Source: Steroidobacteraceae bacterium
GTDB lineage: Bacteria; Pseudomonadota; Gammaproteobacteria; Steroidobacterales; Steroidobacteraceae
Direction: 5' to 3'
Length of the DNA stretch: 53,335 nucleotides
Assembly: GCA_050738535.1 (NCBI GenBank)
Contig: JBOHZT010000001.1
Span: 1-53,335, forward strand
This document shows, piece after piece, positions 39,912 to 53,335 of this stretch. The position numbers and the translations under genes are program-made. Under the pieces are notes generated by a model, which was not told the origin of the DNA, did not search any database, and saw only the letters and a program-made list of their open reading frames with translations. The number at the start of each line of letters is the position of its first letter. Within the stretch, counting starts at the first letter, position 1.

Positions 39912-39988
39912 GCGCCCGTAGCTCAGTTGGATAGAGTACCTGGCTACGAACCAGGGGGTCGGGGGTTCGAATCCCTCCGGGCGCGCCA
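39912..39988 (+). tRNA. tRNA-Arg (anticodon ACG)
   Basis: Cloverleaf read by eye: acceptor GCGCCCG/CGGGCGC, D-arm GCTCAGTTGGATAGAGT, anticodon arm CCTGG-CTACGAA-CCAGG, T-arm GGGGG-TTCGAAT-CCCTC, and an encoded CCA. Near-identical in layout to E. coli tRNA-Arg(ACG). Confidence 0.95.
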
Positions 39989-40015: not shown

Positions 40016-40171
40016 TCATCCGCCTGGTCGCTGCCGTTGCCTGGCCCAACGAGCCTCGACCGCCCTGCGAGCTTGTTCGCTTGTCCTCGCCTTCCTCGGA
40101 CCGCTCGCCTTGCCGCCTTTGCGACCGATAGCCGCCAAGTAGGCGCGCACCGGCTCTGGAGTCTTGCTCAT
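40016..40171 (-). CDS. Small basic protein (51 aa) with 'GRKGGKA...ARRAVEARWARQ' motif; unknown function
   Basis: Hand translation: MSKTPEPVRAYLAAIGRKGGKASGPRKARTSEQARRAVEARWARQRQRPGG*. It is too short for the ORF track. Its ATG overlaps the upstream stop (TGATG). It ends 28 nt from the tRNA. Confidence 0.4.
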   Translation of the reverse strand: MSKTPEPVRAYLAAIGRKGGKASGPRKARTSEQARRAVEARWARQRQRPGG

Positions 40172-40389
40172 CAGTCAGCGAGCTCGAGGCGCTTCTCAAT
40201 GCGTTCGATGCGCCGCACGAGGCGGTCGTGACGGTCGTTCTGATCCGCCTTGTCGGTGTAGATGCTTCCGATCAGCCGCTCAACGCTTGAGAGCCGTGAG
40301 ATGATCTCGTCGAGCTTCTCATCCTGCCGATCCTGCTTGGCGCGCACGCCGCGCAGCATTTCGAGTACCAGATTCTCCGGCTCGTTCAT
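40171..40389 (-). CDS. Small coiled-coil protein (72 aa), unknown function
   Basis: MNEPENLVLEMLRGVRAKQDRQDEKLDEIISRLSSVERLIGSIYTDKADQNDRHDRLVRRIERIEKRLELAD. Heptad-like and highly charged, with locally lower GC. An alternative GTG start exists at 40431. Confidence 0.45.
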   Translation of the reverse strand: MNEPENLVLEMLRGVRAKQDRQDEKLDEIISRLSSVERLIGSIYTDKADQNDRHDRLVRRIERIEKRLELAD

Positions 40390-40482
40390 GTTTCGGCGTC
40401 CTGGCGTATCTCTAGTGTCGCCATTGTACACTAGCCGCTTGCGTATGCAAGTGGCCCGAGAGGTCGTACACTCGCCGCGCGA

Positions 40483-41652
40483 TCAGGACCAGTAAGTCCA
40501 GGGAACGTGGCAGACGCCGGCGCGCTGCAGCTCCACGCCATCGTGTGCCCAGGCCAGCACGGCTTGCTTGGCGCCCAGCGCTTTCATCGCAGTCTGTAGT
40601 GCCCGTTCGTCGTAGGCGACCCGGGATTTCGGGCTCACGGAGACTTTGATAGGGGTCCCCGACCAGACAAAGTCCACCGGGCTTCCGCGGGCGCTCTTGA
40701 AGAAGACAGGCGGAGCGCGCTTACCGGAGTACTCCGCCGCGGCCCGGATCTCCTTGAGAACGAATATCCGGCCCAGGCTGAGGGAGCGGCCCTCGCCCAG
40801 GGTTCCCTCCATCAGGTGGCTTGCGATGCCCGTGTCCGTGGGGAACCAGACGTCCCGTGCGACGCTCGCCTCGTGAGGGGTGAGCTTCTGCAGCAGGAAC
40901 ACGTCCTCGAGCGCCTGCAAATATCTGCGAAGCATGCGTGAGTTCTGCTTGAAGTGCTTGAGCGTAGGTGCTTCGCCCTCCGATAGGAGGCGGGCCATCT
41001 GCCGCAGAATCGACCACGTCGCATCGGGGTCATAGCGGTCGCCATAAGCTCGTGCAGCGTCTCGTACGACGGTAGTCTCTAGCCAGCTGGTGAAATAGGC
41101 GTGGCGCTCCGCGTCACCACGCGTGAAGAGTGGAGTCGGCAAGCCGCCGCATGCCAGCTGTTCGAGCGCCTTCGACTGGGGAAAGCGCGGCTCCGAGCCA
41201 TGGAGCGGGGCGGCGTGGCCGGCCGAGAACTCGGCCTGGTGCGCCTCGGCCAATGTCATCGGATACAGATAGTGCAAGCCGATTCGTCCGGTGAGCGATT
41301 CGCGGATGCCGAGCCGTGCGGAAAATCGCGACGAACCGGTGAGATAGTACTTCCCGGGCTGCCTCCTGCGGTCGACATCGAGCTTGATGGCATCGAAGAG
41401 CGCGGGCGCCTTCTGCGCCTCGTCGATGGCGACGGGGGTGCGGAGCTTCGACAGGAAGTTCTTGGCGGAGAGGCGCGCATCCTCGAGCGCGTCCTGGTCA
41501 TCGAGCGTGACGTGATGGGATACCCCGAGAAGGTTACCGAGCAGGGTGGATTTGCCGATCTGCCGGAGTCCGAGGACGCCGACGACGGGCCAGAAGCGAC
41601 CGGCTGCCTTCAGTCGAGCGAGGAGGTGACGATTGCGGAGATGAGCCACCAA
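40483..41652 (-). CDS. AAA+ ATPase (AAA_14 + DUF4143 family)
   Basis: Walker A 'GLRQIGKSTLL', Walker B 'VAIDEAQK', and a DUF4143-like C-terminal half. TTG/GTG start. It lies 41 bp downstream of the PRTase gene on the same strand. Confidence 0.8.
   Translation of the reverse strand: MVAHLRNRHLLARLKAAGRFWPVVGVLGLRQIGKSTLLGNLLGVSHHVTLDDQDALEDARLSAKNFLSKLRTPVAIDEAQKAPALFDAIKLDVDRRRQPGKYYLTGSSRFSARLGIRESLTGRIGLHYLYPMTLAEAHQAEFSAGHAAPLHGSEPRFPQSKALEQLACGGLPTPLFTRGDAERHAYFTSWLETTVVRDAARAYGDRYDPDATWSILRQMARLLSEGEAPTLKHFKQNSRMLRRYLQALEDVFLLQKLTPHEASVARDVWFPTDTGIASHLMEGTLGEGRSLSLGRIFVLKEIRAAAEYSGKRAPPVFFKSARGSPVDFVWSGTPIKVSVSPKSRVAYDERALQTAMKALGAKQAVLAWAHDGVELQRAGVCHVPWTYWS
40632..40690. repeat. 59-bp perfect direct repeat, copy A (inside the 3' part of the ATPase gene)
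   Basis: GGCTCACGGAGACTTTGATAGGGGTCCCCGACCAGACAAAGTCCACCGGGCTTCCGCGG is identical at 43363..43421. Here it encodes '...RGSPVDFVWSGTPIKVSVS...' of the ATPase. Confidence 0.9.
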
Positions 41653-41693
41653 AGTAGAGTATATAAATGTCGTTATGACGTCAAATATATGCC

Positions 41694-42362
41694 CTACTTA
41701 GGCGCTTCCGCTCCGGTCGCCCGGTCACTGGGGTGGATCGCCCGAGCGATGAAAATGGCGACGATCGCGTGCCCCGGCAGTGCCTCGAGGAGCCGGGTCT
41801 TGGCGACTTTGTAGTGCTTCCCGGACGTGAGGACGTCGTCGAAGAGGATGATCCGGTCACGGACGGGAGTGGTGAGCTGCGCGCGGTCCAATTCCGTGAT
41901 CTCGAGCAGCGCATCGTAGCTGCTGCGCAGGTCGCGCAGATGATCGGCCTCGGTGCTCACCGTTTGCCGCAGCAGGCAGCGTAGATCGAGTGCGTCGCCG
42001 AAGGCGGCACGGAGGGTACGCTCGAGACGATCGCAGTAGTCCGGATGGGTGCGCACGCGGGAGGTGGCGATCGGGACGAAAGTGGTCTCGGCCAGCGTCC
42101 GCCCGGAGATGGCCGTGCGCAGCGCCGCCGCTACGTCGCGAATCGCCTGCTCCTTGTAATAGTGAAGCTCGCGCGCCTTGGGACTCGCGCGGATCGCCAT
42201 GGGCCTGCGCTTGTAGTTGGCGATGAGCTGATTCGTCTCGCCGAAGCGAAAGCCCTGGCGGCTGTGGAAATCTCCAAAGAAGTAGCAGTGGTCGTCGGGA
42301 TCGAGGAAGTGATGCTGATCCCGGGTGGTCTCGTCGATCTTGGTGAGGCGGTCAGGGAGCAA
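41694..42362 (-). CDS. ComF-like phosphoribosyltransferase-fold protein (PPRT)
   Basis: PRPP-binding loop 'RIILFDDVLTSGKH' and upstream 'FVPIATSRVRTHPDYCDRLERTL', resembling ComF/amidophosphoribosyltransferase-like proteins. Overlaps the dprA-like stop by 11 nt. TTG start, so the start is uncertain. Confidence 0.7.
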   Translation of the reverse strand: MLPDRLTKIDETTRDQHHFLDPDDHCYFFGDFHSRQGFRFGETNQLIANYKRRPMAIRASPKARELHYYKEQAIRDVAAALRTAISGRTLAETTFVPIATSRVRTHPDYCDRLERTLRAAFGDALDLRCLLRQTVSTEADHLRDLRSSYDALLEITELDRAQLTTPVRDRIILFDDVLTSGKHYKVAKTRLLEALPGHAIVAIFIARAIHPSDRATGAEAPK

Positions 42363-43362
42363 GGTGTCTCATGATGTCCTCGAGCGTCGCGACGCGGGCC
42401 GCGCCGCGAGCGAGGAATCTGGCGGGCCAGGTCAGCTCCGGGTTGCGTAAGCAGCTGTCGAGGATGAGGAGCTTGCGTCCCTGCTGGAGTGCGTGGCGCG
42501 CCTGGATCAGCGTGCCGGAGGTGTTCCCCGCCTCGACGATGATCGTCGCCTCGGTGAGCGCGGAGATCGTCGCATTGCGCTCGGGGAAGAAGAGCCGATT
42601 CTGCAGCGGACTCTGCTTCGAATACCGGACGATCGGGACTTGGCTCACCACTAGGAACTCGGCGGCGATCCGGCGCTGGAGCGCTGCGTTCGCAGGCGGG
42701 TAGCAGGCGGTGATCGGCGTGCCGAGGACGGCGATCGTTCTGCCTCCGGCCTCGATCGCCGCGCGATGCGCAGCGGTATCGATTCCCTGCGCGAGGCCGG
42801 ACACGATCGTGAATTTCGCGCGGACGAGGCCTCGCGCCAGCTTCGCCGCGCGCCGCTCCCCGTCCTCACTGGGGTGGCGCGTGCCGACGATCGCGACGCA
42901 GCGCGTGCTCGTGAGATCCCAGTTGCCGCAGTAGTACAGGAGCTCGATCGGATGCGCGGCATCGCGGAGCCGCGCCGGATACTCGCCGGCTCCGTTGACC
43001 CGGATGCCGAAACGCGGGATGTCGGCCGCGCGGATCTGGTCGAGGGCGTCCCGCGCGTACTGCTCGGCCTCGCGCGGCTCGACGAGGTCCGAGGGCATCG
43101 CCTCGGGATGCATCCGGAATCGATTCGCGAGAGTCTTGAACGTCGCCCCCTTTTGCATCCACAGGGCTTCGTACGCGCCGATCTCGCGAGCCGGGACTAT
43201 CGCGCGCTCGGTGAAGTCGAGCGTGGCGGCGGTGGACTCGAAGAGGTCGGACATGGGTGTGATCCGCGGCGTCGGCTCGGCCCGCATGAGCGCCGCGTCC
43301 CGCAGGGTAACAGGCTTTCGAGATCGCGGCAGCCGGTCGACGACTGGCGCGATCAGGACCAT
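42352..43362 (-). CDS. DprA/Smf-family (SLOG Rossmann) protein
   Basis: 'YPARLRDAAHPIELLYYCG', 'VAIVGTRHPSEDGERRAAKLARGLVRAKFTIVSGLAQGIDTAAHRAAIEAGGRTIAVLGTPI...YPPAN', 'FPERNATISALTEATIIVEAGNTSGTLIQARHALQQGRKLLIL'. No C-terminal winged helix. 336 aa. Confidence 0.8.
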   Translation of the reverse strand: MVLIAPVVDRLPRSRKPVTLRDAALMRAEPTPRITPMSDLFESTAATLDFTERAIVPAREIGAYEALWMQKGATFKTLANRFRMHPEAMPSDLVEPREAEQYARDALDQIRAADIPRFGIRVNGAGEYPARLRDAAHPIELLYYCGNWDLTSTRCVAIVGTRHPSEDGERRAAKLARGLVRAKFTIVSGLAQGIDTAAHRAAIEAGGRTIAVLGTPITACYPPANAALQRRIAAEFLVVSQVPIVRYSKQSPLQNRLFFPERNATISALTEATIIVEAGNTSGTLIQARHALQQGRKLLILDSCLRNPELTWPARFLARGAARVATLEDIMRHLAP

Positions 43363-43421
43363 GGCTCACGGAGACTTTGATAGGGGTCCCCGACCAGACA
43401 AAGTCCACCGGGCTTCCGCGG
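43363..43421. repeat. 59-bp perfect direct repeat, copy B (abuts the dprA-like start codon)
   Basis: Identical to 40632..40690. Similarity stops exactly at both ends. It contains an internal 7-bp inverted repeat GACTTTG...CAAAGTC. Confidence 0.9.
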
Positions 43422-43480: not shown

Positions 43481-43762
43481 ATGATTAAACGCGTATCGGC
43501 GACGGACGCCAAGAACAACTTCGGCGGGTTGCTCGAGGACGTTGCAGCGCTCGGGCGCGTCGACATCGTGCGGCACGGCCGCGTGGCTGCCGTCGTACTC
43601 TCTCCGCGCGCGCTCGGATCGCAGGCGCCGAGCGCAGAGCGCGCGAAGCCCGCGGGATCGGCGGGGCAGGCAAGCCGCTGGGGCGCGACGCACATGATCC
43701 CGCCGCGGCTTGCCCGCGGCGCCCGCATGCTCACCACGCCCGACGAGTTCGATGACGACTGA
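43481..43762 (+). CDS. Phd/YefM-family type II antitoxin
   Basis: 'MIKRVSATDAKNNFGGLLEDVAALGRVDIVRHGRVAAVVLSPRA' is the canonical Phd N-terminal fold. Disordered acidic tail '...TPDEFDDD'. Overlaps the next ORF by 11 nt. Confidence 0.8.
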   Translation: MIKRVSATDAKNNFGGLLEDVAALGRVDIVRHGRVAAVVLSPRALGSQAPSAERAKPAGSAGQASRWGATHMIPPRLARGARMLTTPDEFDDD

Positions 43763-44540
43763 GCAGGGCATCGAGGCGCCGCTCTCGCCGCAAGACGTGC
43801 GGAAGATCCTCAGGATCTGCTCGCCTTCAGGATTGCTCGTCGGCGGCCAGGCGCTCGCTTTCTGGGCCGATCACCTCGCAGTGCAGCGCCCCGCCGCGCT
43901 CGCCTCGCAGGTCACGGCCGATGCGGATTTCATCGGCGATTCGGCGTTGGCGAAAGACCTCGGCAAGCGTCTCGGTTGGACGACGTGGATTCCCGCCATG
44001 GACGATGCGACGCCGCAGACGGGGAAGGTGACGCATCGCCTGGAAGGCGGCCGCATCAAGCAGGTGGATTTCCTGTCGGGCGTCGTCGGTCTCAGCACGA
44101 AGGATATCGGCCGCAGGGCGGTCGAGATGCAGGTGCCGAGCATCGGGCGGCTACGGGTGATGCATCCGATCGACGTGCTCGACAGCCGCATCCAGAACTT
44201 GCATGCGCTGCCGCAGAAGCGTAACGAAGCCGGAGTGGCGCAGGCGAGGCTCGCTGTGGACGTCGCCCGGGCTTTCATTCGTGAGCGGATCTTCGCGCGC
44301 GGCGAGCGCACTGGGCTCAAGCTGCTCGAGCGCGTGGCCGACATCGCCGCGGACATCGCCGCGGTGCGCGTCTTCCTGCTCTACGGTGTCGAGCCGCTCG
44401 AAGCCGTGCCGCTCGAGGAGTTCCGCACGACCTCGGCTTTGCACAAGGTGCGCTGGCCGCAGATCGTCGCTGAGGTGCGGGCCAAGCGGGAGGCGCTGCG
44501 GCGCGTCTCAGCCGACGCGCCGCAGCCGGCAACTCGATAG
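43752..44540 (+). CDS. Nucleotidyltransferase-fold protein, candidate toxin/effector partner of Phd
   Basis: 263 aa from MTTEQGIE. 'LLVGGQALAFWADHL...VTADADFIG' fits the hGG-x-A...(T/S)-x-D-x-D pattern of minimal/AbiEii-like NTases, followed by a helical C-terminal domain. Confidence 0.45.
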   Translation: MTTEQGIEAPLSPQDVRKILRICSPSGLLVGGQALAFWADHLAVQRPAALASQVTADADFIGDSALAKDLGKRLGWTTWIPAMDDATPQTGKVTHRLEGGRIKQVDFLSGVVGLSTKDIGRRAVEMQVPSIGRLRVMHPIDVLDSRIQNLHALPQKRNEAGVAQARLAVDVARAFIRERIFARGERTGLKLLERVADIAADIAAVRVFLLYGVEPLEAVPLEEFRTTSALHKVRWPQIVAEVRAKREALRRVSADAPQPATR

Positions 44541-52320: not shown

Positions 52321-53335
52321 ATGAGTGCTGATTTTCGGCGTCCTCACGCCGCCTACCTCGCCAAGCGCCTCGTCGAGCCGCGTCGCTTCCTGCAGGTCAT
52401 CACGGGGCCTCGGCAGGTCGGGAAATCGACACTGGTCCAGCAGGTCACCTCGGATCTCGAGGCACCGGTGCGCTATGCGAGTGCCGATGAGCCCACGCTC
52501 CGCTCGGCCGATTGGATCGGTCAACAGTGGGACGCCGCCAGGCTGCAATCCGGCGCGCGATCGTCCGCCGGTGCAGTGCTGGTGCTCGATGAAATCCAAA
52601 AGATCCCTGGCTGGTCGGAAACGGTCAAGCGGTTATGGGATGAGGACACTCGGGCGCGCCGGCCGCTCAAGGTCGTTGTGCTTGGGTCCGCGCCACTGCT
52701 GGTCACGAAAGGACTCACAGAAAGCCTGGCTGGCCGATTCGAGACGCTGCACTTGCCCCACTGGTCCTTCTCCGAGATGCGAGCAGCATTCGGCTGGTCG
52801 CTCGACGATTACCTTTTTTATGGCGGTTATCCGGGCGCAGCGGGCCTCATTGGGGAGTCGGAGCGGTGGATGCGATATATCGCGGACAGCTTGATCGAGA
52901 CCTCGATCTCGCGGGATGTGCTCCTGCTTACGCGCGTCGACAAGCCGGCGCTGTTGAGGCGGCTGTTCGAGCTCGCCTGCCGCTATTCCGGACAGGTGTT
53001 GTCCTACACCAAGATGCTCGGCCAGCTTCAGGATGCCGGGAACACGACCACTCTGGCGCACTATCTGCAGTTGCTCGAAGGAGCGGGCATGGTCTGCGGA
53101 TTACCCAAGTACGCGGGCGATCTGGCGCGCAGCCGTGGCTCGAGCCCGAAGCTTCAGGTGCTGAACACCGCGCTGATGAGCACGACTTCGGGTCTTACAT
53201 CCCGCGATGCTCGGGCCGATCACGAATTTTGGGGGCGCCTCGTAGAATCGGCAGTCGGAGCGCATCTCGCCAACGCCGCGGTCGAGGGGGGATGTTCCAT
53301 CTCGTACTGGCGAGAAGGGAACTTCGAAGTGGATT
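52321..53335 (+). CDS. AAA+ ATPase (AAA_14 + DUF4143 family), 3' end beyond the window
   Basis: Hand translation: MSADFRRPHAAYLAKRLVEPRRFLQVITGPRQVGKSTLVQQV...AVLVLDEIQKIPGWSETVKRLWDED...LSYTKMLGQLQDAGNTTTLAHYLQLLEGAGMV.... It is open to the window end, so it is absent from the ORF track. Distant paralog of 40483..41652. Confidence 0.8.
   Translation, partial: MSADFRRPHAAYLAKRLVEPRRFLQVITGPRQVGKSTLVQQVTSDLEAPVRYASADEPTLRSADWIGQQWDAARLQSGARSSAGAVLVLDEIQKIPGWSETVKRLWDEDTRARRPLKVVVLGSAPLLVTKGLTESLAGRFETLHLPHWSFSEMRAAFGWSLDDYLFYGGYPGAAGLIGESERWMRYIADSLIETSISRDVLLLTRVDKPALLRRLFELACRYSGQVLSYTKMLGQLQDAGNTTTLAHYLQLLEGAGMVCGLPKYAGDLARSRGSSPKLQVLNTALMSTTSGLTSRDARADHEFWGRLVESAVGAHLANAAVEGGCSISYWREGNFEVD

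Follow-up and report, generated by a model that had tools for sequence, protein, structure and literature searches.

Does a DprA-like gene that overlaps a phosphoribosyltransferase (PRTase) gene serve natural transformation or phage defence, and does the ATPase gene beside the two belong to the same system? The question was raised by a locus of a Steroidobacteraceae bacterium, lying in a stretch of 53,335 nucleotides (nt) from contig JBOHZT010000001.1 (assembly GCA_050738535.1). This whole stretch is called the window here, and coordinates are window positions unless a locus label is given. A preliminary description, made before any database search, had reported two minus-strand open reading frames (ORFs) of 336 and 222 amino acids (aa) with an overlap of 11 nt, an ATPase gene 41 bp downstream and a tRNA-Arg gene 1.7-3.4 kb away, and all of these coordinates hold (Table 1). 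The pair, shosA-shosT, is a chromosomal copy of the catalogued system ShosTA (formerly 'DprA-PPRT') in its short form. Taken together, the results suggest that it probably works as a self-contained type IV toxin-antitoxin of the ShosTA family, which would defend the host against phages by abortive infection.

The identity of the pair was obtained with the PADLOC profiles, a check that had been proposed for all three proteins and that named ShosA, ShosT and, for the ATPase, PDC-S01. Residues 62-334 of the 336-aa frame matched the ShosA profile PDLC03961 (E 2.8e-95), and the 222-aa protein covered model positions 2-214 of 237 in the ShosT profile PDLC03962 (E 4.9e-32). The same two models recognised the validated E. 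coli P2_4C9/APEC O1 ShosA (2.4e-85) and the 424-aa E. coli ShosT (1.8e-53). The subtype-specific models gave a different result. The E. coli P2_4C9 proteins reached 3e-294 with PDLC03012 and 2e-231 with PDLC02997, whereas the window ShosA was weak against the long-form model PDLC02997 (2.9e-21) and the window ShosT had no match to the long-form model PDLC03012. Since the broad models are common to both and the subtype-specific models diverge, the window pair is a ShosTA member in a subfamily other than that of E. coli. It is already detected by existing profiles and is not a new system. The earlier suspicion of a catalogued DprA + PRTase defence system was therefore right, and the name given for it, 'Rst_DprA-PPRT', is the one that DefenseFinder has since changed to ShosTA.

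ShosA had been described as a 336-aa DprA/Smf Rossmann protein. The family was confirmed by Pfam DNA_processg_A (E 3.1e-59) and by SLOG LDcluster4 (28.6 bits, cut-off 26.3), but the conserved protein has about 300 aa and begins at 43254. Homology to the relatives starts at residue ~37 of the 336-aa frame, the 36 codons between ATG 43362 and M37 (43254) are not conserved, and more than 100 ShosA homologues with 68-76% identity are 299-300 aa long. From this onset of homology and these lengths, the genuine start is most probably M37 at 43254, giving 300 aa. The protein has two domains, a helical one at the N-terminus and a Rossmann domain of the DprA/SLOG type. Its AlphaFold2 model, with a predicted local distance difference test score (pLDDT) of only 71, matched S. 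pneumoniae DprA 3uqz (5.5e-16) and E. coli ShosA 8zva (3.8e-12) in Foldseek, both over ~300 columns. Furthermore, R126, R226 and R253 (300-aa numbering) were invariant in 25 homologues and aligned with R139, R234 and R261 of E. coli ShosA, which bind single-stranded DNA (ssDNA). Conservation was higher in the antitoxin than in the toxin: identity to the window protein was 67-76% for the 120 best ShosA homologues, and ShosT homologues dropped to 55-60% after the first few. In another genome (L014:6437-7081), a complete shosA is directly preceded by an additional ORF fragment that resembles ShosA (E 2e-39) and is possibly a tandem remnant.

For the 222-aa protein, Pfam gave no match, and the PRTase fold claimed for it is based on the phosphoribosyl pyrophosphate (PRPP) loop motif and on the AlphaFold2 model. 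The motif IILFDDVLTSGKH was found in the 222-aa translation. The PRPP loop 'LFDDVLTSGKH', with the acidic pair D175/D176, was invariant in 22 family members, and ShosT had 24/24 of the positions without variation in the alignment of these 22 sequences. The model, built with 22 homologues, had a pLDDT of 92.9 and showed a single PRTase-type domain; the N-terminal pyrophosphatase (HAD-like) domain is absent from these 222 aa. The best Foldseek matches in the PDB were the E. coli ShosT structures 8zvb, 8zvc and 8zvd (E ~1.5e-4, template modelling (TM) score 0.44-0.49). The next was H. pylori ComF 7p0h (E 3.9e-4, TM 0.51); PyrR and the purine PRTases ranked lower. The short ShosT family is large: in a set of 1.84 billion proteins its profile matched 2,308 representative clusters with E <= 0.001 (611 with E <= 1e-30), and the lengths are almost always 200-240 aa.

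These folds might instead point to housekeeping competence, with the genome's own dprA and a ComFC-like partner acting in natural transformation. By sequence ShosA is nearest to the transformation DprA 3uqz, and the PRTase model reaches a TM score of 0.51 with H. pylori ComF. Moreover, the DprA fold, the ssDNA-binding arginines and the ComF-like PRTase fold are common to the window pair and DprA/ComFC. The echo of this competence pair noted earlier was apt: the ShosT model matches ComF as well as it matches ShosT, and E. coli ShosA binds ssDNA and RecA (PMC12961424). However, ShosA scored below the NCBIfam dprA equivalog TIGR00732 (169.2 bits, cut-off 191.15) and below NF008007 (143.7 against 495 bits), and Pfam reported no C-terminal DprA winged-helix domain. 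ShosT has three isolated cysteines and none of the CxxC pairs of a ComFC-type zinc finger, and no helicase gene is adjacent. As had been stated before, the window ORFs near shosTA include no comFA, def, fmt, smg or topA; a second DprA-like gene was not found within the window either. In addition, pairs of this type are mobile and patchily distributed, being found on P2-like phages and plasmids and dispersed over several phyla in unrelated contexts. A role as the housekeeping competence pair is therefore very improbable.

The unit in which the two genes travel was examined in 80 genome loci encoding short ShosT and in 11 further loci, 91 in total; the further loci are two close metagenomic relatives, seven viral contigs, phage Mana and one E. 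coli plasmid. ShosA stands directly upstream of ShosT on the same strand in 49/80 genome loci, and the pair is present in 11/11 further loci. The hosts belong to Proteobacteria, Bacteroidota, Chloroflexota, Acidobacteriota and Patescibacteria. The neighbours differ between loci: among 138 nearest-neighbour ORFs of 36 loci, no PADLOC family occurred more than three times, and dispersed defence genes were found among them (CBASS cyclase, AbiEii, DruD, SoFic, RmrA and mad genes). Because the pair is retained while flanks and hosts vary, the functional unit is two genes, and it is a mobile module rather than a core competence gene.

Copies on mobile elements resemble that of the window closely. 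Burkholderia phage Mana, which is P2-like, carries the same short-form subtype as gp51 'DprA' and gp52 'phosphoribosyltransferase', in the variable int-to-cos region beside the cos site; this copy agrees with the P2/P4 hotspots named earlier for the system. The ShosA proteins of Mana, of related Burkholderia, Ralstonia and Pseudomonas phages and of the E. coli plasmid CP010208 are 55-56% identical to that of the window. Their PRTases have 208-225 aa and match PDLC03962 only, and gene order and coupling are as in the window. The difference is that these copies are borne by phages or plasmids and the window copy is chromosomal.

The nearest named system is ShosTA of the E. coli APEC O1/KTE181 P2-like prophages (Rousset 2022, pFR105; Millman 2022, 'Shosta'; Pu 2025, PMC11961720; Yang 2026, PMC12961424). 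In both systems the DprA-like gene lies directly upstream of the PRTase gene on one strand (the order of phage P2_4C9). They also have in common the matches to PDLC03961 and PDLC03962, the DD pair, the ssDNA-binding arginines and the two-domain ShosA, and both the long and the short type occur in P2-like phages. Compared with the PRTase-only toxin of the window, the E. coli toxin of 424 aa carries an N-terminal pyrophosphatase/HAD domain. The genes are separated by 1 nt in the phage and overlap by 11 nt in the window. PsyrTA (RqlHI) likewise combines a DprA-like antitoxin with a PRTase-containing toxin, and weak cross-matches were obtained with PsyrA (1.6e-27) and PsyrT (0.0064). However, PsyrT is a helicase + PRTase model of 689 positions, and the window proteins fit the ShosA and ShosT models far better.

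The 11-nt overlap, formed by the shosA stop and the shosT TTG, is probably a device of translational coupling with a weak toxin start codon. The junction ...CAC CTT GCT xCC TGA is conserved among short-form loci, as is the weak toxin TTG start within the last codons of the antitoxin, and 19 of the 49 ShosA-ShosT loci have the identical 11-nt overlap. The conserved weak TTG inside the antitoxin end fits coupled, antitoxin-biased expression. At the other end of shosT, the arms AAGTAGGGyATATA and TATATACyCTACTT form an AT-rich hairpin, with perfect pairing in a close relative (L181, below) and two mismatches in the window, which probably marks the end of the operon. A terminator scan found no T-run terminator. 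The only promoter-like site in the promoter/terminator scan was one on the plus strand that belongs to the Phd gene; with no terminator either, the scan was uninformative for the shosTA operon.

The ATPase gene follows on the same strand after a gap of 41 nt, and it had been thought to be possibly part of a three-gene variant. The protein is AAA_14 by Pfam (E 9.5e-19); the DUF4143 domain also assigned to it scored slightly below the cut-off (25.4 vs 28.1 bits). In a three-gene system it would be a sensor or effector together with ShosA and ShosT. The strand and the short distance, with no terminator-like site found in between, agree with this idea. So do an ATPase-gene fragment just upstream of shosA and the match to the defence candidate PDC-S01 (PADLOC profile PDLC04790, E 2.9e-55). 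The systems of the PDC series were predicted as candidates from their position inside BREX, DISARM and restriction-modification loci. PDC-S01 is a single-gene candidate, and homologues of the ATPase are solitary elsewhere. Moreover, no ATPase homologue was present within 8 kb of shosT at any of the 80 genome loci or in the fetched 6-10 kb flanks of the 11 further loci (0/91), so that the conservation of a gene trio looked for across genomes was found for the pair and not for the ATPase.

A relative with ~90% DNA identity gave the clearest result on this point. Its contig of 1,757 nt (L181) aligns to window 42964-41652, which comprises shosA, shosT and the 41-nt spacer. After 4 nt (L181:1342-1345), it resumes at window 40407-40232 in the 72-aa gene and continues into the tRNA flank. 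L181 thus lacks the 1,244 nt of 40408-41651 with the ATPase gene, an indel between close relatives, with the junction immediately after the AT-rich hairpin at the shosT end and with shosA-shosT intact. Given the 0/91 co-occurrence and the exact absence of the cassette in L181, the ATPase is a separate inserted cassette and no component of ShosTA. The three-gene system is largely refuted, and hardly any likelihood is left for it. The ATPase itself may be an independent, putative defence gene.

Traces of the cassette were also found on the other side of shosA. Positions 43363-43421 are a perfect 59-nt copy of 40632-40690 (ATPase codons 321-340), followed by 1 nt and then, at 43347-43361, by a 15-nt copy of 40477-40491 in the ATPase stop region. 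This scar corresponds to the ATPase 3' end minus 140 nt, and the spurious ATG 43362 was formed at the junction of its two pieces. It was found again in a second assembly with 99.73% identity and is hence not an assembly artefact. We infer that the cassette was formerly also present upstream of shosA, or that it has moved. The scar upstream and the indel downstream point to cassette flux around an intact shosTA. A longer ATPase pseudogene upstream of shosA was considered and rejected: the 80-aa tblastn match depended on 20 identical residues that come from the 59-nt repeat, the other 60 aa were ~25% identical with gaps, and no convincing similarity extended past 59 nt.

No transposase or integrase was found near the cassette. 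In two metagenome contigs (L131:7983-9173 and L132:8193-9383), an ATPase homologue stands directly downstream of a PolB homologue, a context that fits a mobile single-gene cassette. A distant AAA_14/DUF4143-type paralogue is present in the window at 52321-53130 on the plus strand (tblastn, 27% identity over 295 aa). A look-up of the exact ATPase sequence gave no match because the gene caller had chosen a different start.

The mechanism of long-form ShosTA has been studied in E. coli, and what was said earlier about a missing mechanism is out of date. The system was described as a type IV toxin-antitoxin acting by abortive infection in 2025 (PMC11961720) and 2026 (PMC12961424). It defends against T7 and lambda; the one tested by Rousset et al. 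is that of the APEC O1 P2-like prophage. The E. coli ShosT comprises an N-terminal pyrophosphatase (1-164), which merely modulates toxicity, and a PRTase (165-424) (PMC11961720). Toxicity requires PRPP binding and was abolished by D331A/D332A and by R285E (PMC11961720, PMC12961424). The long toxin disturbs purine metabolism, with filamentation and DNA duplications as the outcome (PMC11961720, PMC12961424). E. coli ShosA neutralises the toxin indirectly and without binding to it; the antitoxin dimerises and interacts with RecA and, through R139 and R234, with ssDNA (PMC12961424). One trigger is T7 Gp0.7, which stops host transcription while ShosA is unstable; phage ssDNA competing with RecA binding is a probable trigger as well (PMC11961720, PMC12961424).

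A similar course can be proposed for the window pair. Both genes would be expressed from one transcript, on which the weak TTG start of the toxin overlaps the antitoxin stop. ShosT would be a PRTase-only enzyme that binds PRPP by its DD loop and transfers or consumes phosphoribosyl groups, with damage to nucleotide metabolism and DNA as the consequence. ShosA would not sequester the toxin but may offset the damage via recombination and repair. On infection its function would be lost, either when host expression is shut off or when phage ssDNA titrates it, and pre-made ShosT could then kill or arrest the cell ahead of phage release. The present analysis shows that the pair belongs to the family and is conserved as two genes, that its catalytic and DNA-binding motifs are intact, and that the module is mobile and independent of the ATPase. 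That ShosT is toxic, what it targets, how RecA takes part and what triggers the system we infer from experiments in E. coli with a longer and distant ShosT. For the target, RecA and the triggers, our confidence is lower than for the overall reading, because the window toxin is a fold-level relative that lacks the pyrophosphatase, other residues align with K200 and R206, and the experiments appear to concern the long form only.

Several observations weigh against this proposal. All experiments to date used the 424-aa ShosT with its N-terminal pyrophosphatase, a domain not in the window ShosT, and no experimental test of a short-form system was found in the searched literature. The structural match of the window ShosT to the E. 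coli protein is modest, with 10-12% identity. Furthermore, phmmer and the family profile found no ShosT among the PDB sequences, and hhalign of the short-family profile with the 424-aa E. coli ShosT gave a non-significant probability of 0.8%. Foldseek and the broad profile of PADLOC are the only searches that connect the short ShosT with the solved E. coli ShosT. In ShosA, P187 and Q193 align with K200 and R206 of the E. coli RecA contact, in an alignment of ~23% identity and for an interface that is itself a predicted model. By sequence, the window ShosA also has a closer match in the DprA of S. pneumoniae (4.6e-30) than in the ShosA of E. coli (3e-19). Finally, ~26/80 loci have no ShosA, most of them in metagenome-assembled genomes of Steroidobacteraceae or unclassified Gammaproteobacteria, and short ShosT may not always be a toxin that needs ShosA.

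The pair could also be an addiction module alone, which stabilises the islet or a mobile element and gives the host no meaningful protection from phages. ShosTA was first discovered as a toxin-antitoxin pair without phage tests, the window locus lies beside a Phd antitoxin-type module, and the pair is frequent on plasmids and prophages. Nevertheless, the tested long-form homologues protect against T7 and lambda, known defence genes neighbour the pair in other genomes, and the phage copy of Mana is placed in the variable region next to cos. Addiction without defence is thus considered unlikely, and phage defence by a ShosTA-family toxin-antitoxin is the preferred reading.

The loci without ShosA are of interest for the chemistry of the toxin. 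Here the PRTase gene is translationally coupled to a gene for a MobA/MobL relaxase or a TrwB-type coupling protein, whose end it overlaps, and one or two coupling-protein genes lie upstream. A neighbour-joining tree groups these PRTases as a single clade inside those linked to ShosA, and ~22 of the loci, mostly of Steroidobacteraceae, share a chromosomal site, convergent with leuB-leuD-leuC. The identifiable genes directly upstream of short ShosT are of two kinds, a DprA-like ShosA in defence modules and, in a Steroidobacteraceae module with conserved synteny, a MobA/MobL relaxase or type IV coupling protein. The antitoxin-free PRTase is always beside ssDNA-processing proteins, which suggests that the action of the short PRTase may be tied to ssDNA.

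Following this suggestion, short ShosT could act on DNA or ssDNA intermediates, for instance by phosphoribosylating nucleic acid or a DNA-bound substrate, while ShosA guards the ssDNA substrate. Both kinds of upstream partner handle ssDNA, the fold is as near to ComF as to ShosT, and the short form has no pyrophosphatase domain. In addition, no tested purine was bound by the E. coli enzyme (PMC11961720). On the other side, metabolomics of the long form indicates purine metabolism, and PRPP binding is essential there (PMC12961424). Such a different chemistry is unlikely, and it is with the same reserve that the short, ComF-like ShosT may be called an ssDNA-coupled phosphoribosyltransferase whose substrate is DNA or a DNA-bound molecule. 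If this were true, direct sensing or marking of the replication intermediates of phages would take the place of poisoning the purine pool in the window system.

A third arrangement was observed in gut viral contigs (L173:3596-6290, also L174-L180), where the gene of a 203-aa PRTase is followed by that of a 329-aa DprA-like protein and then by a separate gene for a 166-aa HAD hydrolase. Across the three arrangements, a pyrophosphatase-like function can therefore occur fused to the PRTase, as a gene of its own or not at all. The PRTase-only short form is a large family carried by P2-like phages and plasmids, whereas the mechanistic work was all done on the rarer-looking long form. The short-form pair could reveal whether the pyrophosphatase and the RecA contacts are essential or lineage-specific additions, and the relaxase-linked clade without ShosA is a natural experiment on the role of the PRTase in the absence of the antitoxin. 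For annotation, the gain is that the locus can be labelled as a ShosTA defence/toxin-antitoxin module with an independent ATPase cassette beside it.

Table 1. Features of the shosTA locus in the window, and loci of the clade without ShosA
Feature	Position	Strand	Description
shosA	ORF 42352..43362	-	336-aa open frame; conserved protein, most probably 42352..43254, 300 aa
shosT	ORF 41694..42362	-	222 aa, TTG start, predicted PRTase domain only
shosA/shosT overlap	42352..42362	-	11 nt, shosA stop with shosT TTG start
AT-rich hairpin	41652..41699	-	Starts in the final shosT codons, ends where the ATPase cassette begins
ATPase-gene 3'-end scar	43347..43421	-	Inside the shosA leader
ATPase cassette	40408..41651	-	Holds the AAA_14/DUF4143 ATPase ORF 40483..41652, 389 aa; outside the ShosTA system
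tRNA-Arg(ACG)	39912..39988	+	Context gene
72-aa hypothetical gene	40171..40389	-	Between the tRNA and the ATPase
Phd-family antitoxin + 262-aa ORF	43481..44540	+	Divergent to shosTA, separate module
ShosA-less clade, examples	L032:3348-8663; L023, L026-L028, L033, L034, L037-L039, L041, L043, L044		
ShosA-less clade, further examples	L052-L054, L058, L068, L069, L071, L072, L074		

The surroundings of the pair had been described as a tRNA-linked islet. The link to tRNA-Arg(ACG) is adjacency only. No integrase, phage or plasmid genes were found around the window shosTA, and no 16-20-nt piece of the tRNA gene (with <=2 mismatches) recurs as an att-like repeat elsewhere in the islet, nor is there a repeat of the tRNA 3' end. 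Five weak 16-nt matches to the tRNA all lie outside the islet, at 7,017-30,049. The GC content of shosA and shosT and that at their third codon positions are close to those of the flanks, which is weak evidence for a foreign origin. Borders of the islet were sought by a scan of metagenome contigs with the neighbouring PolB, and this approach was rejected: the 80 PolB loci obtained were only 64-70% identical and non-syntenic, and no 'empty site' was seen. The 72-aa gene between the tRNA and the ATPase is present in L181 and not in the other shosTA loci.

The neighbouring module had been read as a Phd toxin-antitoxin pair. Its first gene (43481-43762, 93 aa) indeed encodes a Phd-family antitoxin by NCBIfam TIGR01552 (28.3 bits, cut-off 20.8), with a score slightly below the Pfam cut-off. 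The overlapping 262-aa ORF (43752-44540) had no match in Pfam, NCBIfam, PHROGs or PADLOC and is a possible, uncharacterised toxin partner of this antitoxin. Homologues of the Phd-like protein, of the 262-aa protein and of the small downstream protein were found neither within 8 kb of the 80 loci nor in the 11 further loci. The promoter region of the Phd gene contains a TTAGCTA direct repeat.

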